NCBI GenBank assembly: GCA_905235605.1
Contig: CAJOMF010000001.1
Location: 6,967-70,966 of the forward strand
DNA length: 64,000 bases
Origin: an uncultured bacterium
GTDB lineage: Bacteria; UBP6; UBA1177
Direction: 5' to 3'
The position numbers and the translations under genes are program-made. Each line of letters begins with the position of its first letter. The first letter of the stretch is position 1. Below, piece by piece: positions 11,395 through 34,967 of the stretch. The notes beneath the pieces are model-generated. The model saw nothing but the letters and a program-made list of their open reading frames with translations, was not told where the DNA came from and did no database searches.

Positions 11395-11422
11395 ATTATA
11401 ATTATTTGTTGCAAAGTGTCAA
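11395..11422 (-). promoter_or_regulatory. Sigma70-like promoter of the HAD-NTase-GT4-CDP-alcohol operon (TTGACA-16-TATAAT)
   Basis: Perfect hexamers on the minus strand: TTGACA 11422-11417, TATAAT 11400-11395. Confidence 0.75.
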
Positions 11423-11435
11423 AAAAGGATTCGCT

Positions 11436-11460
11436 GTAGAGACGTTTCATGAAACGTCTT
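11436..11460. repeat. GTAG-headed REP-like hairpin (intergenic copy)
   Basis: GTAG overlapping the perfect 20-bp palindrome AGACGTTTCATGAAACGTCT, immediately past the peptidase stop. Confidence 0.7.
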
Positions 11461-13692: not shown

Positions 13693-15165
13693 TTATTGCG
13701 GATCGCAGGCAATCCATTCTTCGTCGTCGGAAATATTACCGCCGTAATCGGGAGTCGCTTTGTAACTGTAAAGTGTTGCGGAACCTTCGAGAGAGATCGT
13801 AGTTGCTCCGAGTTCCCAGCTGATATCATTTATTTTGATGCTGCCGATGCCGAAAGCGTGGTCGCATACAGTTCCGTCGCTCTTTGTTCCTTTTACAAAA
13901 ATCCTTGCTTCAGTCGTCCACTCACCCAGACCGAGAGTGTAGTCTAAGCCGGGTTCTGTAATGGTTGTTACAAGGTGTACTGACGGATATTTGACTTCTG
14001 TACCCTGGTAAGTCTGAACGAATGTAATGTTTTCTGTATCCGGTGCATCTTTGAAATGTGAGATTTGTGCGTATGAGAAAACTTTGTCTGCCGCTGATGG
14101 ATTAATTACAGAAATGTCATTGTTGTTACCGAATGTTCCTGTAACGAAAGTATCCATAATTACATATTCATTACTGATGGTGATCTTGTCATCTTCCGAT
14201 TGCGGTTCTTGATGGAGATAAGGGAATGTTCCGCTGATTGTTACTTCACCGTAAGGGACTGCATAATTCGGGTCGTTGACCATGCCGCAGGTTTCTTCCT
14301 GTTCCAGACAGTGCTCGTAATAGCAGCGGTAGTTGCCGTTGCAGTTGTTTGCTTCGTCACATGCAATAAGATCGTTGTACTGTTCTCTTGCAACAGCGGT
14401 GCTGTTTATATAACAGTTGCCGATGCAGGTGGAGTTTGTTTCATAACAATTGTCCGTGCAAGCCCGGATGTCCGCACATGTTTCCTGCTTGTCGGAAGTG
14501 TCGGTTGCATTTATGCCGGCAGATACGATCTCTATGCATGAACCGTCTTCATCAGCAAGTTTTGCGGAAATTGCTGCACTTATTGCAAAAGTTTCAGGAT
14601 CATAGCTGCTGACAGTGATCGTTCCGCTTTCCTGGAGATATTCCTTCTGAGTGCTTTCGCCGTAATCTTGGATGATAGTCAGGACCGCCTGATCAGAAGA
14701 AAGATCGTAGGAAGTCGTTGTTTCGATATTTTTAAGTTCAAGGGTAACCAGATCGAAAATAGTGTGGTCACCTAAAAATCCGCTTTGTACCTGTCCAAGG
14801 TATTGACCTTTGAGGTATATAAAAAAGTTCGGGTTGAGATAAACTCTGGTGCATCCTTCAGGAACGACCGGGTCAGTCGGATCGGTCGGATCAGTCGGAT
14901 CGGTCGGATCAGTCGGGTCAGTCGGATCGGTCGGATCAGCCGGATCGGTCGGATCAGTCGGATCATCAGTATTGGTCGGGTCATCAGGATTTGCCGGGTC
15001 ATCAGGATTTGTCTGATCGTCGGTTGAATCAGGATTTTCAGTATCAGGGTTGTCGGTATCAGTGGTGCCAGTGTCAGGAATGTCGAGTTCATCAAGTTTT
15101 TTGTCGCTGCAGCCGGTGAAAGCAAAAAGTGCAAAAATTACAAAAATCAAAGAGACTTTTTTCAT
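13693..15165 (-). CDS. Surface lipoprotein with PTD-repeat stalk and 10-Cys module
   Basis: Lipobox FTGC, (DPT)n linker, CADIRACTDNC... module. Confidence 0.85.
   Translation of the reverse strand: MKKVSLIFVIFALFAFTGCSDKKLDELDIPDTGTTDTDNPDTENPDSTDDQTNPDDPANPDDPTNTDDPTDPTDPADPTDPTDPTDPTDPTDPTDPTDPVVPEGCTRVYLNPNFFIYLKGQYLGQVQSGFLGDHTIFDLVTLELKNIETTTSYDLSSDQAVLTIIQDYGESTQKEYLQESGTITVSSYDPETFAISAAISAKLADEDGSCIEIVSAGINATDTSDKQETCADIRACTDNCYETNSTCIGNCYINSTAVAREQYNDLIACDEANNCNGNYRCYYEHCLEQEETCGMVNDPNYAVPYGEVTISGTFPYLHQEPQSEDDKITISNEYVIMDTFVTGTFGNNNDISVINPSAADKVFSYAQISHFKDAPDTENITFVQTYQGTEVKYPSVHLVTTITEPGLDYTLGLGEWTTEARIFVKGTKSDGTVCDHAFGIGSIKINDISWELGATTISLEGSATLYSYKATPDYGGNISDDEEWIACDPQ
14869..14967. 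repeat. Coding 9-bp tandem repeat (CGGATCRGT-like x11) encoding DPT/DPA
   Basis: 11 consecutive 9-mers in the lipoprotein linker. Confidence 0.9.
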
Positions 15166-17230: not shown

Positions 17231-17237
17231 AGTCAGT

Positions 17238-18533
17238 CTATTCGCCTCTGCGGACGCAGCGGACGATATCTGAATTGGATTTGCCGCCGAAATTTACGAT
17301 GCCGTCATAGAAGGTGACATACCATGCGTTTTTCCAGTCATCGGAGGTCGGACTCTTTTTCGCATCACTTGAGGATGTGCGGAAGGAGCGGTTCGGCATC
17401 TCCGGGAAATCTGAGGCAGGGTGGTATTTTGCGTAGTTTGCGAGTGTCGCAAGTTCGTTTTTGTTGGGAAGTCTCCAGTCGGAAAATCCTGCATATTCAA
17501 GGTTTTCGCAGGTGGAAAGGGCGTCTGCGAATTTTTTTACGCTGTCTTTGTAGGTTTTCTGCCAGATGAGACCTGTGACTGAATCTTTGACGATCTCTTC
17601 TTCGCCGATTTTTTCTGTTTCAAACTCTCCGTCAGGCAGAGGTGTGCCGCGGACGCAGCGGACATGCATTTTTTCACTTTCGGTCTTGGCTTTGTGGCTT
17701 AAAAAGCCTTTGTCGAAGCGGACGAACCACGCTTTGTTCTGATCTGCCTCGGCAGTCGAAACGAAATCGGCGGAAGTCCAGAACCATTCATCCGGCGTTT
17801 CGGGAAAATATTCTGTGTTTACTGCCGGATCAGATTTTCCGTTGTCAACGATCGAAAGGAGTTCCTTCGGTGTCGGAAGCCGCCAGCCGTAACTTCCGGC
17901 ATATTCTTGTCCGCAGTAATTTGTGGCACTCTGCCAGTCAAATTCGCCTTCAGGAATCTTCTGCTGCCATTCAAGCTTGAGGTTTTCGTCAAAGACGATT
18001 TTTTCGTCTCCCAAGCCTTTGACCGTGAATTTCTGCGGAATGCATTCGCCTTTTTTTGCATACTGCGCATCCTGGCCGAAGAACGCTTCGCCTTCATCCG
18101 GGCAGGCGATTTCGGCTGTTTCGCTGTAGCATTTGGTCTCGCCGGTGCAGATGTTGCCGAAAACGGCGGGTATGCCGGGTATCACGATGCCGGTATCTTC
18201 GTCGTCAGTCATGTCGGGATCATCGGTAGGATCGGGGTCGTTATCGTTTTCCGGGATATCGATATCGGATATAACGATATCGTCGGCATCGTTTTCCGGA
18301 TCGGTGGTGCCGGGATCGTCTGAATCATTGTTTTCCGAGATATCGATATCGTCTTTGTCATCGTGGTTGTCGGCATCGTTTTCCGATGTATCGATATCGG
18401 ATATAACGATATCATCGTGATCTTCGTTTTCTGACCCGGTGTCAGTCAGTTCTTCCCCGTCATCTTTAGACGAACAGGAAAGAACAAAAAAAGCTGATAA
18501 AACCAGAATGAAAAGCAGATTGAATTTTTTCAT
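17238..18533 (-). CDS. Lipoprotein with two DUF1566 (Lcl C-terminal) domains
   Basis: Lipobox VLSC, acidic linker, two D..(T)GL.WQ...W..A..YC...GWRLP..(K/N)EL...VRCVR domains. Confidence 0.9.
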   Translation of the reverse strand: MKKFNLLFILVLSAFFVLSCSSKDDGEELTDTGSENEDHDDIVISDIDTSENDADNHDDKDDIDISENNDSDDPGTTDPENDADDIVISDIDIPENDNDPDPTDDPDMTDDEDTGIVIPGIPAVFGNICTGETKCYSETAEIACPDEGEAFFGQDAQYAKKGECIPQKFTVKGLGDEKIVFDENLKLEWQQKIPEGEFDWQSATNYCGQEYAGSYGWRLPTPKELLSIVDNGKSDPAVNTEYFPETPDEWFWTSADFVSTAEADQNKAWFVRFDKGFLSHKAKTESEKMHVRCVRGTPLPDGEFETEKIGEEEIVKDSVTGLIWQKTYKDSVKKFADALSTCENLEYAGFSDWRLPNKNELATLANYAKYHPASDFPEMPNRSFRTSSSDAKKSPTSDDWKNAWYVTFYDGIVNFGGKSNSDIVRCVRRGE

Positions 18534-30702: not shown

Positions 30703-31386
30703 ATGAAAAAGATTTCTTTGTTTATGTTAATGATTTTCGGAATTTTCATGCTTTTTGCTACTGATGCTGCACCTGAGACTGCTCAGGAAAATGCTGCTGC
30801 TCCCGAAACGGCTCAAACACCCGCAGAACCTGCTGCTGAACAGGCTCAACCCGCTGAAACCGCACAGGAACCCGCCGCTGAACCGGCTCAGGAACCAGCC
30901 GGAAATGCACCGGAACCTGTAGAGACGTCACCTGAGACGTCTCAAGAACCTGTAGAAAACACAATGGAACCGGTCTCTGAGGTTGTTGAAGAACCGGTAA
31001 AAAAGGCACCTCGTGCAGGAAAGCCGCAGAAAATCAAATACTACAGACCTTACTTGGGTGCCGGAATCCCGCTTATCGTCATCGGTTCGGTATCTTTTGC
31101 ACTTATGATGCCGGCGATGGGAACTATGGCGTTTGCCGCATCGGACGCATGCGAAGGCAAGGACTGGGGTTTCTGCGAACAGCTTCATGACAACAATAAG
31201 AAACACCACACCGCATGGACTGTCGGTGCAGTTATGACGGGTGTCGTAGGTGCCGGCATGATCGCAGTCGGATCGTGGCTCACAAGTATTCAGAAACCGA
31301 GAGAAAATCAGTGCGTTACACTGGAAGGTGTAGCAGTCCTTCCGACCAAAGACGGAATGTACGCTTCCATAGGTCTGGGTTTCTGA
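30703..31386 (+). CDS. Exported protein with Ala/Pro/Glu-rich stalk, hydrophobic hairpin and terminal Phe
   Basis: GGAGG RBS and ATG 30703; signal peptide; ends GMYASIGLGF. Confidence 0.75.
   Translation: MKKISLFMLMIFGIFMLFATDAAPETAQENAAAPETAQTPAEPAAEQAQPAETAQEPAAEPAQEPAGNAPEPVETSPETSQEPVENTMEPVSEVVEEPVKKAPRAGKPQKIKYYRPYLGAGIPLIVIGSVSFALMMPAMGTMAFAASDACEGKDWGFCEQLHDNNKKHHTAWTVGAVMTGVVGAGMIAVGSWLTSIQKPRENQCVTLEGVAVLPTKDGMYASIGLGF
30919..30943 (+). repeat. GTAG-headed REP-like hairpin, in frame (VETSPETS)
   Basis: GTAGAGACGTCACCTGAGACGTCTC; stem GAGACGTC/GACGTCTC; identical to 34611-34635. Confidence 0.75.
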
Positions 31387-31431
31387 CCGCATTTTTCCTG
31401 ATTTCCGAATCCGAAAAATCGTCTTCTTAAA

Positions 31432-31459
31432 TTGACAATTCACTCTCCATCTTTAGAAT
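31432..31459 (+). promoter_or_regulatory. Sigma70-like promoter of the leuC-family operon (TTGACA-16-TAGAAT)
   Basis: TTGACA 31432-31437, TAGAAT 31454-31459. Confidence 0.65.
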
Positions 31460-31491
31460 AAGCCGCTTATGTTTTTTGGAGGGGAAAAATT

Positions 31492-32703
31492 ATGGGAAAG
31501 ACTGTCATTGAAAAGATTTTTTACGACCATCTGATCGACAAAAATGAGCCCGTTACGCCGGGTTCGATCGTCTGGATCAATATTGACTACAAAAGTGCCA
31601 GGGATTTCGGCGGCGCAAATGTCGTCAACAACCTTGAAAGCAAGTTTTCAGGCTCTCTTATCGCCGATAAAGAGCGCACAATGTTTACTTTTGACTGCGT
31701 TGCACCGGCAAAAACGATCCCTTATGCCGTAAATCAGCAGAGATGCAGGGTTTTTGCAAGAAAGGAAGGGCTCAAAGTCTACGATGTCGATTCGGGGATC
31801 GGGTCTCACATCCTTATCGACGAATACGCAAAGCCGGGAATGACGATCGTCAGCACTGACAGCCACTTCAACATCATGGGTGCTATAAGCTGCTTCGGTC
31901 AGGGAATGGGAGACGTCGATATTTCATACATCTGGAAAACAGGCAGGACCTGGTTCGAAGTGCCGCAGAGCGTGAAACTTACTCTCAAGGGAACACGCAA
32001 GCCCGGCATAAAAGCTAAAGATATCGTTCTTTTCATGCTGAAAAAGTTCGGTTCGCGTACTTTTCTCGGTCAGGTCGTCGAACTCTACGGCGAAGAGGCT
32101 GCTAAACTCACTCTCGACGAAAGAGTCACGATCGCCAGCATGGGAACCGAGATGGGTGTAATTTCGATAATGATCCCGACGACAGGGCTTGAAGGTTTCA
32201 AAGAGATCAAGGCTGATCCCGATGCAAAATATGCCGCTGAATACGAGCTTGACCTCGATGCACTCACTGAGCCGCAGGTAGCAGCTCCGCCGCATCCGCA
32301 CAACGTCCACAACGTCAGCGAATTTGCGGGAAAGGCGGTTGATACGGTATTCATCGGAAGCTGCACGAACGGCAGGATCTCCGATTTTGAAGATGTTGCC
32401 AGAATAGTCAAAGGCAAAAAGATCAAAACGAACGGATACATTGTTCCGTCATCACGCAGGATCTACGGCGAACTTATGAAATCGGGCATTCTCGAGATAC
32501 TTTTCGATGCAGGTTTCGTAATCGCAAATCCGGGCTGCGGCGGCTGTGCTTCAGGTCAGATCGGAATGACGGGCGACGGCGAAGTCATCGTTTCGACTTC
32601 GAACCGCAACTTCAAAGGCAAACAGGGAAACGGCGAAGTCCACTTGGCAAGCCCTGCAACGGCTGCATACTCGGCATTGAAAGGGGAGATCTGTGGATTC
32701 TGA
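31492..32703 (+). CDS. leuC: Isopropylmalate/homocitrate dehydratase family large subunit (short type); substrate uncertain
   Basis: STDSH, FIGSCTNGR, NPGCGGC, STSNRNFKGKQG, HLASPATAA. Confidence 0.85.
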   Translation: MGKTVIEKIFYDHLIDKNEPVTPGSIVWINIDYKSARDFGGANVVNNLESKFSGSLIADKERTMFTFDCVAPAKTIPYAVNQQRCRVFARKEGLKVYDVDSGIGSHILIDEYAKPGMTIVSTDSHFNIMGAISCFGQGMGDVDISYIWKTGRTWFEVPQSVKLTLKGTRKPGIKAKDIVLFMLKKFGSRTFLGQVVELYGEEAAKLTLDERVTIASMGTEMGVISIMIPTTGLEGFKEIKADPDAKYAAEYELDLDALTEPQVAAPPHPHNVHNVSEFAGKAVDTVFIGSCTNGRISDFEDVARIVKGKKIKTNGYIVPSSRRIYGELMKSGILEILFDAGFVIANPGCGGCASGQIGMTGDGEVIVSTSNRNFKGKQGNGEVHLASPATAAYSALKGEICGF

Positions 32704-34111
32704 GAATTTGATCTCGCTCCTCTTTGTTTTGGATTCGTCTCCGCAGAGCGACGCGTCCCTTGCATTTTTCAACAGTTTTATTGAGCAGCTTATCGACTGC
32801 ATGGCTGAAAAAGCTGCTCTGACTGTGTTTTATCCCGAATTTTCGGACAAAGAGGAACATTTTTCGCTCAGCATAACGCAAATGCCGAAATACCGCCGCA
32901 TGGTAACGTACATTCCGACGCGGCTCGAATCTTTCAGCGAAACTTATCTCAACGAAAAAATGGAAGGTGTTTTCAGCTTCATTCTGAAGGAAGACCACTT
33001 TGACACGATCCACATCTGGAGCCTCAAAAACCACTCTTTCAACTATCCTGCAATCGCGAAAGAGCGCGGGATTCCGGTGGTTTACACTTTCTGCGACGGA
33101 TTCCTTTTTTCAAATTCGATTTTCGAAAAAGGCTTGGGCGAAAACGGTGAAAAAGTCAGAGTTTCAAATTTTGTGAACTCTTCGGTAACCTCTTTTGTCC
33201 GCAGATTGTTCAGCGCCGTCAAGCCGAAACCGCGCTCGTACTGGTTTGAAAACATCGGCAGATTCAGCCGTTACTACAACCGCACATCCGAAAGCGGGAT
33301 CGACCCCGAAGTGTTTGAAGAACGTGCCGGAATAGCTGATGAAGTCATATCTTTCTGCGACAAGTTCGTGTTCTTTTCGGAACTTGAATACAACCTCTTT
33401 TACCGCCCGCTGATTCCCGAAAGCAAGGTTGCTTTCATGGAGCAGGGGATAATGCGTGAACTCGATTTCTGGAACCGTCCTTTTGAGATCGAAGGAGCAG
33501 TCAAATTCTGTTTCACGGGTGAAATCCTGCCGGAAGAGGGGATCTTTGAACTTGTCGAAGCGTTCAACATCCTTTACAGCGAAGGATTCCGCAACGAACT
33601 GCATGTCTACGGCGAAACGCACGAAAATTCGCCTTATTTCAGCAGGCTCAAACAGCGCGTAAAAAGCCCGGACATTTTTTTCCACGGCTCGATTCAGGGG
33701 GGAAGGATAAACGCCGCACTCAATACGGCAGATGTTCTGATCGTGCCTGCAAAATGGATGCGCAGCGATACTTTTCTCGTCAACAACGCTGTTTCCGAAA
33801 GAAAGGCACTCATAGTCTCGGGAAGGAATGCGCTTGCCGAAAAAGTGAGAAAGTCGGGCAGGGGGATCATTCTTGACGAAGTGACTCCCCGCGCGATCGC
33901 AGACGCTGTTTCGGAGCTTGAGCGCAACAGAAAAAGGCTTTACTATTTCATGCGGGTCACCGACGATTTCAGAGTGCCGGATATAAACGAAAACTGCGAG
34001 GCACTGAATTCGCTTTACGGTGAAATTGCCAAAAATTATAAAGAAGCTGATCCGCTTTTACTGGCGAGAAAACTTAACAGAAGAAGAAAAGAGAGGCAGC
34101 AACGTGGATAA
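32693..34111 (+). CDS. GT4-like glycosyltransferase-fold protein with degenerate motif
   Basis: GTG start overlapping leuC; IHIWSL..AKERGIPVVYT, FTGEILPEEG, ADVLIVPAKW. Confidence 0.7.
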   Translation: MDSENLISLLFVLDSSPQSDASLAFFNSFIEQLIDCMAEKAALTVFYPEFSDKEEHFSLSITQMPKYRRMVTYIPTRLESFSETYLNEKMEGVFSFILKEDHFDTIHIWSLKNHSFNYPAIAKERGIPVVYTFCDGFLFSNSIFEKGLGENGEKVRVSNFVNSSVTSFVRRLFSAVKPKPRSYWFENIGRFSRYYNRTSESGIDPEVFEERAGIADEVISFCDKFVFFSELEYNLFYRPLIPESKVAFMEQGIMRELDFWNRPFEIEGAVKFCFTGEILPEEGIFELVEAFNILYSEGFRNELHVYGETHENSPYFSRLKQRVKSPDIFFHGSIQGGRINAALNTADVLIVPAKWMRSDTFLVNNAVSERKALIVSGRNALAEKVRKSGRGIILDEVTPRAIADAVSELERNRKRLYYFMRVTDDFRVPDINENCEALNSLYGEIAKNYKEADPLLLARKLNRRRKERQQRG

Positions 34112-34967
34112 ATTGAAAAACAGCGGCACTCCTACGCCGGCTTTGGTCGTAAAACTTGTAATCGTACTTGTTTTTCTGCTCACGGCAGCTTTTGTGAGCG
34201 GAGTAGTCATAGGGAAAAACGGCAGGCGGAATGTCGACAGAACGAGTTCCGACGAAGAAGGGATAAATGAAAAACTTTCAAACTGCATTTTCAATTCAGA
34301 CGAACTTCGTGAAAAATACCTGAAACTCAGGGATGCGGCGCGTGAAAAAGGGCTTGTAGACGAGAATGACGTCGTCAACAGCAAGGTTGTCTGCAAACCT
34401 GAAACAAAACCCGTGGAAAAACCGGTTGAGCCTGAACCTGCACCCGTAGAGACGTCTCCTGAAACGTCTCCGGCAGGCAAACCCGACGAACCTGAATCCG
34501 TAGAGACGTCGCCTGAGACGTCTCAAAAAGAACCGTCTGAACCGGAAAAACCGAAACCTGTCGAAACAAAACCTGAAGAAAAACCCGTAGAAAAACCTGC
34601 AGACAAAAAAGTAGAGACGTCACCTGAGACGTCTCAAAAAGAACCCGCAAAACCGGAGAAAACCGAAAAACCTGATAAAAACAAGACGATCGATGAAATA
34701 CTGACAGAGAAAAAAGCGGAACCTGCGAAAGAAAAAGGGCAGAAGTGCCGCTATTCGATACAGATTTTTGCCGCAAACACAAAAGAGCAGGCTGATGCGG
34801 CTGCCAAAAAGCTGAAATCTCTGAAACCGCGCATTGTCAGCGGCGGGGACAAAGGTAAAACTTGGTATAAGCTGAGAACCGGCTGTTTCGATTCGGTAGA
34901 AGCCGCTGAAGCTGAATTGCCGAAAGTCAAAAAATCGGAAAAATCGGCATATATTGTCTCGGAATAA
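34104..34967 (+). CDS. SPOR-domain membrane protein (FtsN/DedD-like)
   Basis: GTG 34104 after GAGAGG; single TM, P/E/K-rich linker, YSIQIFAA...WYKLRTGCF SPOR domain. Confidence 0.85.
   Translation: MDKLKNSGTPTPALVVKLVIVLVFLLTAAFVSGVVIGKNGRRNVDRTSSDEEGINEKLSNCIFNSDELREKYLKLRDAAREKGLVDENDVVNSKVVCKPETKPVEKPVEPEPAPVETSPETSPAGKPDEPESVETSPETSQKEPSEPEKPKPVETKPEEKPVEKPADKKVETSPETSQKEPAKPEKTEKPDKNKTIDEILTEKKAEPAKEKGQKCRYSIQIFAANTKEQADAAAKKLKSLKPRIVSGGDKGKTWYKLRTGCFDSVEAAEAELPKVKKSEKSAYIVSE
34446..34635 (+). repeat. Three in-frame GTAG REP-like hairpins (34446-34470, 34500-34524, 34611-34635)
   Basis: GTAGAGACGTCNCCTGARACGTCTC, each encoding VETSPETS. Confidence 0.75.

Follow-up and report, generated by a model that had tools for sequence, protein, structure and literature searches.

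Why should the same DNA hairpin spell the same eight residues in two unrelated proteins? The question arises from a 64-kb window of DNA (the whole stretch analysed here) from the uncultured rumen "UBP6" lineage, whose relatives are rumen metagenome-assembled genomes (MAGs). An earlier note on this DNA had described a GTAG-headed hairpin, always in frame as VETSPETS, that occurs once in an exported protein encoded from position 30703 and three times in the linker of a SPOR-domain protein. Our analysis indicates that these hairpins are very probably copies of a GTAG-tagged family of repetitive extragenic palindromes (REPs), the cognate enzyme of which is a REP-associated tyrosine transposase (RAYT) of the published subclass 2.4 type. 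REPs are usually treated as extragenic, and copies within genes have been noted but seen as tolerated accidents. GTAG-tagged REPs of this RAYT type are already known, including their in-frame residence in genes; the rumen host lineage and a subtype restricted to genes are new, and the genuinely unusual features are this gene-only subtype and its frozen synonymous sites.

Within the window, GTAGAGACGTCNCCTGARACGTCTC is found four times without a mismatch, always on the plus strand, and a fifth time with three mismatches at 11436-11460, while none of 100 dinucleotide-preserving shuffles of the window contains a match. The four exact copies bear out the count given previously, and all of them read GTA GAG ACG TCN CCT GAR ACG TCT, that is VETSPETS, in frame. 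Two copies in different genes had been called identical over 25 nt; the identity of the 30919 and 34611 copies extends to 27 nt (GTAGAGACGTCACCTGAGACGTCTCAA). As single-stranded DNA, the window copies fold into a stem of 7-8 bp with a loop of 6-8 nt and an unpaired 5' GTA, at -6 to -8 kcal/mol (z -2.4 to -3.9). The unit GAGACGTCTC, which spells E-T-S, is a 10-bp palindrome with four copies in the window against 0.09 expected, and a direct peptide repeat ETS-P-ETS is thus automatically an inverted repeat at the DNA level.

It could be supposed that VETSPETS is a selected peptide motif, such as a glycosylation or processing site, with codon bias or common descent accounting for the shared DNA. 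We consider a genome scan that covered one genome per species (185,579 species, 596 Gb) with the back-translated pattern GTNGARACNTCNCCNGARACNTC. It returned about 97 matches, 32 of which use 8 of the 4,096 possible spellings and come without exception from rumen or gut MAGs; the remainder are scattered singletons from unrelated taxa, many of them outside long open reading frames (ORFs). The exact 25-mer pattern has 31 copies at 23 loci, all in an open frame as VETSPETS, in proteins as unrelated as FtsY (in its linkers), SPOR proteins, an ankyrin-repeat protein (in its tail), MmeI-type restriction-modification (RM) enzymes, a Bacteroidales EPSP synthase and a transglutaminase-like protein. Codon usage in the window does not favour the canonical spelling (GTA 16%, GAG 27%, ACG 27%, CCT 25%, TCT 16%), the joint probability of which, given VETSPETS and that usage, is 5e-6. 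Moreover, the same DNA is found between genes, flanks RAYT genes and is read in reverse as other peptides, and the DNA stems are unchanged whether residue 4 is S, F, L, or C. Some observations do suit a peptide motif, as the ortholog of the 30919 copy in RGIG2292 mostly keeps the peptide despite four synonymous codon changes, and a few rumen MAG copies use other VETSPETS codons (L033, L043, L060, L080, and L084). Together with the codon usage, the back-translated scan largely refutes this explanation, to which we attach hardly any credence. The VETSPETS repeat is a nucleotide-level element rather than a peptide motif.

A sequencing or assembly artefact was likewise rejected, since MAGs from several separate studies contain the element, as do cyanobacterial genomes from isolates. 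No copy was found in 2.9 million viral contigs, and neither the exact sequence nor its peptides had a match in the literature searched.

A REP family and its transposases

A looser genome scan with GAGACGTNNCNTGANACGTCTC yielded at least 118 loci, and intergenic copies are found beside the in-gene ones. The full form of the family is a perfect 28-bp palindrome, GTAGAGACGTTTCATGAAACGTCTCTAC (GTAGAGACGTTTCA followed by TGAAACGTCTCTAC), which is dominant among the matches listed. Identical GTAGAGACGTTTCATGAAACGTCTCTAC (loci L089-L204) is present in rumen Bacteroidales, the UBP6-like clade of the window, many cyanobacteria, and single Patescibacteria and other MAGs. This identity across phyla is unusual, because REPs are normally regarded as species- or genus-specific. 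The cyanobacteria with GTAGAGACGTTTCATGAAACGTCTCTAC include Dolichospermum, Phormidium, Crocosphaera, and Cylindrospermum, among others; the small dispersed repeats that Elhai et al. described in 2008 from the same cyanobacterial genera are reportedly mobile-looking palindromes of 21-27 nt.

The stems covary between subfamilies as well as between phyla. Among the matches listed, the two paired positions left free by the search pattern are Watson-Crick in 118/122 copies, with T:A, C:G, G:C, and A:T pairs all represented. In an alignment of 16 family representatives, 7 of the 12 stem pairs change on both sides and pairing holds in 92.7% of cells, a value that drops to 32-53% on sliding the partners and that 0/500 shuffles attain; this set was partly chosen with a perfect-hairpin finder and is therefore biased towards pairing, a bias that the 118/122 test does not have. 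The lower stem and the GTAG tag (GTAGAGACG...CGTCTC[TAC]) are invariant and the upper stem covaries. The GTAG foot is present in 5/5 window copies, most of the family loci, and 16/16 aligned representatives. Family hairpins, those of the window included, have stems of 7-12 bp and fold at -6 to -10.8 kcal/mol (z -2.4 to -6.4). Copy number amounts to five per 64-kb window, with copies on several contigs of each related MAG; these figures come from contigs rather than complete genomes. The location typical of REPs, outside genes and usually just 3' of them, is seen for the 11436 copy and for many copies of the canonical form and of the A and B subtypes described below, and the VETSPETS subtype departs from it. 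The family scan, the palindrome and the stem covariation thus support the earlier assignment to REP-type GTAG hairpins.

The earlier note had also suggested looking for a cognate RAYT, and one is found in the lineage. No RAYT was located beside the sampled REP copies by motif regular expressions, and tblastn with E. coli TnpA_REP (sequence checked against PDB 4ER8) singled out only two loci, L155 and L199. The first, from Bacteroidales, is a 217-aa HUH-Y1 gene with canonical REPs at its start, two past its stop and one in frame inside. The second, from Tb.RUG.391, is a 219-aa gene flanked by inverted copies of GTAGAGACGTGACCTGACACGTCTC, with internal REP-derived units that read GDVSGH; its product exceeds the cutoff of Pfam Y1_Tnp (27.6 bits vs 23). 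Both match NCBIfam REP_Tyr_transpos at E 1e-13, and their HuH, WQ, and Y-I-x-N motifs, found as PNHIH, AWQ(T/S)RFHDH, and YIENNV, align with those of E. coli TnpA_REP. A genome scan with the L199 protein recovered REP-flanked orthologs in the VETSPETS-bearing MAGs RGIG7134, RGIG2292, Red_deer_3_mag_66, RUG11946, UBA1196, and RGIG9961, with two paralogs in RUG11946. In the sister genomes (L205-L213), the REPs on either side of paralog A are always of the GTGACCTGACAC subtype (GTAGAGACGTGACCTGACACGTCTC), those beside paralog B are of the TTTCCTGAAA subtype (GTAGAGACGTTTCCTGAAACGTCTC), and each paralog gene has its own REP subtype in frame inside. Distant RAYT relatives (Leptolyngbya, Turneriella, Blastocatellia, and Flavobacterium) are accompanied by GTAGAGACG-xxxx-CGTCTCTAC with differing self-complementary upper stems, and clostridial relatives by GTAGGGGCG-type REPs.

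Within the RAYT gene of L199 (2060-2125; also L205), three tandem 21-nt half-REP units (GGAGACGTGTCAGGTCACGGA) read GDVSGHG three times and are followed by a full REP. The number of GGAGACGTGTCAGGTCACGGA units varies between RAYT orthologs, which suggests slippage on REP sequence within the transposase gene.

REPtrons of subclass 2.4 (Bertels group 4) have double-foot GTAG...CTAC REPs with 5' GT[AG]G and 3' C[TC]AC feet, in-frame REPs inside tnpA_REP, the motifs NH[IFV]H (HuH), WQ (W), and YIxNNP (Y), and a distribution over Cyanobacteria, Bacteroidetes, and scattered phyla (Quentin, Siguier, Chandler & Fichant 2018, PMC6006769). The genes described here share the double feet, the REP-flanked RAYT, the NH[IFV]H / WQ / YIxNN signature, and the phylum distribution, and the predicted proteins match the subclass 2.4 type by motifs and architecture rather than by phylogeny. 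They differ from that survey in their host, an uncultured rumen "UBP6" group not named there, in a Y motif that ends in V in place of P, and in the presence of two paralogs with their own REP subtypes alongside a third subtype confined to unrelated host genes.

Other known systems resemble this one in part. E. coli REPs and bacterial interspersed mosaic elements (BIMEs) likewise have a 5' GTAG beside a hairpin, and the HuH, WQ, and Y motifs are conserved in their HUH-Y1 enzyme, but E. coli TnpA_REP belongs to subclass 2.2 and has only about 27% identity to the RAYT found here, and the E. coli REPs are GC-rich and essentially extragenic. GTAG- or CGTC-tagged REPs that lie entirely within the ORFs of known proteins have been reported by Di Nocera, De Gregorio & Rocco (2013, PMC3733652), who found the REP-encoded residues to be tolerated and argued against functional constraint; here, in contrast, one subtype is confined to genes and keeps its synonymous sites from species to species. 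Neither our element nor its peptides were found in the text or supplements of PMC3733652 that were examined. REPINs consist of inverted REP pairs that occur as units (Bertels & Rainey 2011, PMC3116915). Head-out REP doublets with spacers of 8-49 nt are also present in our family, one of them in frame in MmeI-type RM genes. Unlike REPINs, however, the window copies are singlets, and the doublets are few and variable in spacing. Rickettsia palindromic elements (RPEs), to which the hairpins had been likened, are about 100-150 bp long and CGTC-tagged, and no dedicated transposase is known for them. The analogy holds for behaviour, since both are palindromic repeats that lie in frame in unrelated protein genes and add peptide segments. 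It does not hold for family, as the present element measures 25-28 nt, has a GTAG tag, and is unrelated in sequence.

The frame filter and constraint within genes

What a REP of this family can become inside a gene depends on its reading frames. In the forward direction, TAG opens frame 2 and TGA interrupts frame 3, which leaves VETSPETS as the only open reading. The reverse complement is open as ETSQVTSL and as DVSGDVS, and the predicted reverse readings, ETSQVTSL/ETCQVTSL and DVSG[DHN]VS, were found in other genes. The RAYT-A subtype reads GTA GAG ACG TGA in the forward direction, and this stop bars it from lying forward inside genes. A single stem-pair flip, from G:C to C:G, separates it from the commonest VETSPETS form (TCA...GAG). 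In the VETSPETS frame, T:A at this pair gives Phe or Leu, G:C gives TGA, A:T gives TAA, and C:G gives Ser and Glu. C:G is the sole state that keeps the stem together with a hydrophilic residue, and this accounts for a VETSPETS subtype restricted to genes. FtsY also contains VETLPETS, the T:A form on that backbone. The TCA...GAG form is limited to the UBP6-like clade; in Bacteroidales every VETSPETS copy is TCT...GAA, which a single transition separates from the B subtype. In genomes and Joint Genome Institute (JGI) metagenomes together, 39/39 exact copies of the C:G subtype lie inside genes (31/31 in genomes, and 8/8 of the commonest spelling in metagenomes), as do 4/4 window copies, across about nine gene families.

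Synonymous sites provide a measure of constraint, and in FtsY they preserve the stem. Across nine species of the clade, FtsY contains one to four REP-derived octapeptides, and species differ by unit-sized indels or tandem duplications with periods of 69-75 nt. The mean between-species difference at four-fold sites of the FtsY NG domain is 39%, yet the octapeptides of the nine species have 3/330 pairwise differences at such sites vs 131.6 expected from the NG domain. One copy that lies outside the selection of any search pattern (GTACAGACGTTTCCCGAAACGTCT, six species) has 0/75 vs 24.1 expected. Within the octapeptides, only codon 4 and the last base of codon 6 vary, these being the covarying stem pair and its neighbour. 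Frozen four-fold sites of this kind imply constraint at the DNA level or concerted evolution.

Presence and absence among orthologs, like the other three checks proposed in the earlier note, came out in favour, with SPOR copy number varying between relatives. RGIG2292 has an identical copy 1 at the corresponding position, where UBA1196 has the TCA/GAG form, and copy 2 is present in RGIG2292. Copies 2 and 3 are both absent from UBA1196 and have a common 3' flank, CAAAAAGAACC, which suggests intragenic duplication. The earlier note had proposed that a REP-type element seeds the P/E/K/T-rich linkers of envelope proteins. This was not borne out, as the UBA1196 SPOR ortholog has an equally long linker with a single copy, and the idea that linkers are built of decayed REPs was rejected because the window holds no further copies at up to 8/25 mismatches. 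Nor is the element limited to envelope linkers, since it also resides in cytoplasmic folded proteins (EPSP synthase, MmeI-type RM enzyme, transglutaminase-like protein, and RAYT). REPs do not appear to create the linkers; they colonise tolerant linkers and loops and resize them by duplication and loss of units.

Several host genes outside the window deserve description. A Bacteroidales EPSP synthase gene (L007 1414-2691; Pfam 214.6 bits) has four in-frame REPs, three read as VETFPETS and one as VETSPETS, and its profile match still spans nearly the whole protein. MmeI-family type IIG RM enzymes (L022 6422-6500; L016 4748-4826; L020 3540-3618) harbour a 79-nt, REPIN-like, head-out inverted REP pair between the target-recognition and C-terminal domains, with one arm of the C:G subtype and one of the RAYT-A subtype, that reads VETSPETS-HKRKTVANAK-ETCQVTSL. 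On the minus strand of L004, a 309-aa open frame with no Pfam family ends in a basic Pro-rich tail that contains about six REP-derived segments in both orientations (VETFPETS, VQTLHETS, VETSPETS, VQTSPEAS, and FQETSL twice).

Spread and maintenance of the genic copies

These observations are probably best explained by the following course of events. A RAYT (TnpA_REP), being an HUH-Y1 single-strand DNA transposase, would presumably recognise the lower stem and tag, and it is presumably because the RAYT reads them that they are fixed; the upper stem would be free to covary, and copies normally lie just outside genes. A copy inside a gene would persist only in a stop-free frame, which in the forward direction is VETSPETS, and its landing site would have to tolerate eight extra hydrophilic residues, as disordered linkers, tails, and inter-domain loops may do. 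The genic copy would then be kept at the family consensus on the DNA level, either by selection on the hairpin or by gene conversion among copies, with change concentrated at one upper-stem pair (codon 4 position 2 and codon 6 position 3). Later duplication and loss of REP-plus-flank units would make linker length vary between species.

Several observations weigh against this account. The NCBIfam REP_Tyr_transpos scores fall under the curated equivalog cutoff (about 50 vs 80 bits). No RAYT gene was found within the window by motif regular expressions or by tblastn with E. coli TnpA_REP, and the syntenic RAYT-A site is empty there. Contigs of RGIG2292, RUG11946, and Tb.RUG.391 match the window at 88-89% identity, and at the same junction Tb.RUG.391 (L199 1782-4681) carries a 2.9-kb island, one boundary of which abuts a REP and which encodes a Fic-domain protein, a small Cys-rich lipoprotein, and the RAYT-A gene with its flanking REPs. 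The C:G subtype was never intergenic in the genome contigs, the window, or one JGI metagenome scan, and it never flanked a RAYT in the genome contigs or that metagenome scan. The RGIG2292 ortholog of the 30919 copy (GTAGAAACTTCACCTGAAACACCC) has lost the hairpin through its four synonymous changes, so the constraint is not universal. Finally, orthologs of the SPOR, 30703, FtsY, and Bacteroidales transglutaminase-like genes have no clean 24- or 27-nt insertion boundaries; their indels are larger units or replacements, and no target site can therefore be defined.

A rival account is that the copies inside genes, though derived from REPs, have ceased to be mobile elements, the VETSPETS subtype having been born in a gene and the RAYT having no role. 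Spread would then occur by gene conversion, unequal recombination, and tandem duplication among pre-existing genic REP copies and similar Pro/Glu-rich linkers, with selection on the protein, in favour of Ser and against Phe, Leu, Cys, or a stop, as the filter. The exclusively genic location of the C:G subtype, away from any RAYT, is in keeping with this, as are the tandem units with 69- and 75-bp periods and identical flanks and the common 3' flank of SPOR copies 2 and 3. In addition, one orthologous FtsY site is TTT/GAA, TTA/GAA, TCA/GAA, or TCA/GAG in close species while the other four-fold sites of that copy are unchanged, which resembles patch replacement rather than point mutation. However, about nine unrelated gene families share the 25-mer, and one of them, that of an MmeI-type RM enzyme, lacks Pro/Glu-rich flanks; conversion tracts so short would have to be frequent between unlinked loci, and the first entry of REPs into genes is left unexplained. 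We regard this account in its full form as possible but on balance unlikely.

With respect to the C:G subtype alone, a search for an intergenic or RAYT-flanking master copy in the genome contigs and one JGI metagenome scan yielded none. Spread driven by RAYT is doubtful for this subtype, since a genic master that transposed at random would be expected to have seeded many neutral copies between genes. We think that the subtype spread mainly by conversion or recombination among copies already in genes, filtered by protein-level selection, and we infer that REPs originally entered genes probably by the RAYT route.

The frozen synonymous sites admit a further explanation, in which genic hairpins are kept for a host function as a nucleic-acid structure. 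As an mRNA hairpin, the structure could slow ribosomes in the linker that follows a signal or anchor segment; it could also influence how stable the mRNA is, or be a site in the DNA to which a protein binds. Stem four-fold sites are far more conserved than the rest of FtsY, stem pairs covary, and many hosts are membrane-anchored or exported and carry the copy immediately behind their N-terminal anchor (FtsY, SPOR, and the 30703 and L008 proteins), all of which speaks for such a function. Yet copies are also found in cytoplasmic enzymes and extreme C-terminal tails, linkers of sister species differ between one and four copies, and one ortholog has lost the hairpin. An mRNA structure in particular is not favoured by 12 genic copies that have a C-A mismatch on the sense strand and a G-T wobble on the antisense strand only. 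A host function of this kind appears improbable to us.

A bolder interpretation is that VETSPETS is a REP subtype adapted to genes, in which the flip from G:C to C:G drops the in-frame TGA, the hairpin is kept, and synonymous sites are actively maintained. We advance this with considerable doubt. If it were true, REPs would have a niche within coding sequence, under dual DNA and protein constraint rather than as tolerated accidents, and the copies could be recombination- or RAYT-dependent "joints" that tune linker length in envelope proteins (FtsY, SPOR, and exported proteins) or, alternatively, functional hairpins within coding sequence.

The more probable reading, that of a REP family with a cognate RAYT of subclass 2.4 type, documents such a family in an uncultured rumen lineage, and the frame-filter rule explains which peptide a REP can become. 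If the synonymous conservation reflects function or RAYT-linked maintenance, the system would offer a tractable case of simultaneous hairpin and protein constraint, as well as a mechanism by which linker length varies in cell-envelope proteins. Practical effects include spurious "homology" between unrelated proteins, false small ORFs, and possible confusion in annotation and MAG assembly.

Features of the window

The REP copies in the window, their host genes, and the empty RAYT site are collected in Table 1. No significant match to protein families was obtained for host gene 1.

Table 1. REP copies and associated features in the 64-kb window
Feature	Position	Strand	Description
Intergenic REP, canonical TTTCATGAAA type, 3' foot degraded	11436..11460	+	Prolyl-oligopeptidase stop codon to HAD hydrolase promoter
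Empty RAYT site	17231..17237		7-bp spacer between EamA-type transporter gene and DUF1566-like lipoprotein gene
Host gene 1	30703..31386	+	Signal/transmembrane segment, A/E/P/Q-rich linker, C-terminal membrane region
In-frame REP, C:G subtype (GTAGAGACGTCACCTGAGACGTCTC)	30919..30943	+	VETSPETS in exported/membrane protein linker; 8-bp stem, -8.0 kcal/mol
Host gene 2	34104..34967	+	Membrane-anchored, P/E/K/T-rich linker, C-terminal SPOR domain (Pfam PF05036, 43.3 bits)
SPOR linker REP copy 1	34446..34470	+	TCT/GAA form; C-A mismatch at stem pair 8
SPOR linker REP copy 2	34500..34524	+	TCG/GAG form
SPOR linker REP copy 3	34611..34635	+	TCA/GAG form

Two lipoprotein genes on the minus strand (13693-15165 and 17238-18533) encode long Asp/Pro/Thr-rich low-complexity N-termini, for example DPTDPTDPT, and these repeats bear no relation to the REP.

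The intergenic copy, which had also been noticed before, stands as described. It begins 5 nt past the stop of the minus-strand prolyl-oligopeptidase gene and contains a perfect 20-nt palindrome (AGACGTTTCATGAAACGTCT) closed by a G-T pair. A role as an intrinsic terminator was rejected: the terminator-like site is flagged on the plus strand only, and both flanking genes are on the minus strand, where no T-run follows the hairpin. Between this REP and the start of the HAD hydrolase gene (11361) sits a sigma-70-type promoter on the minus strand (11395-11422), in which TTGACA and TATAAT are separated by 16 nt, a 12/12 match.

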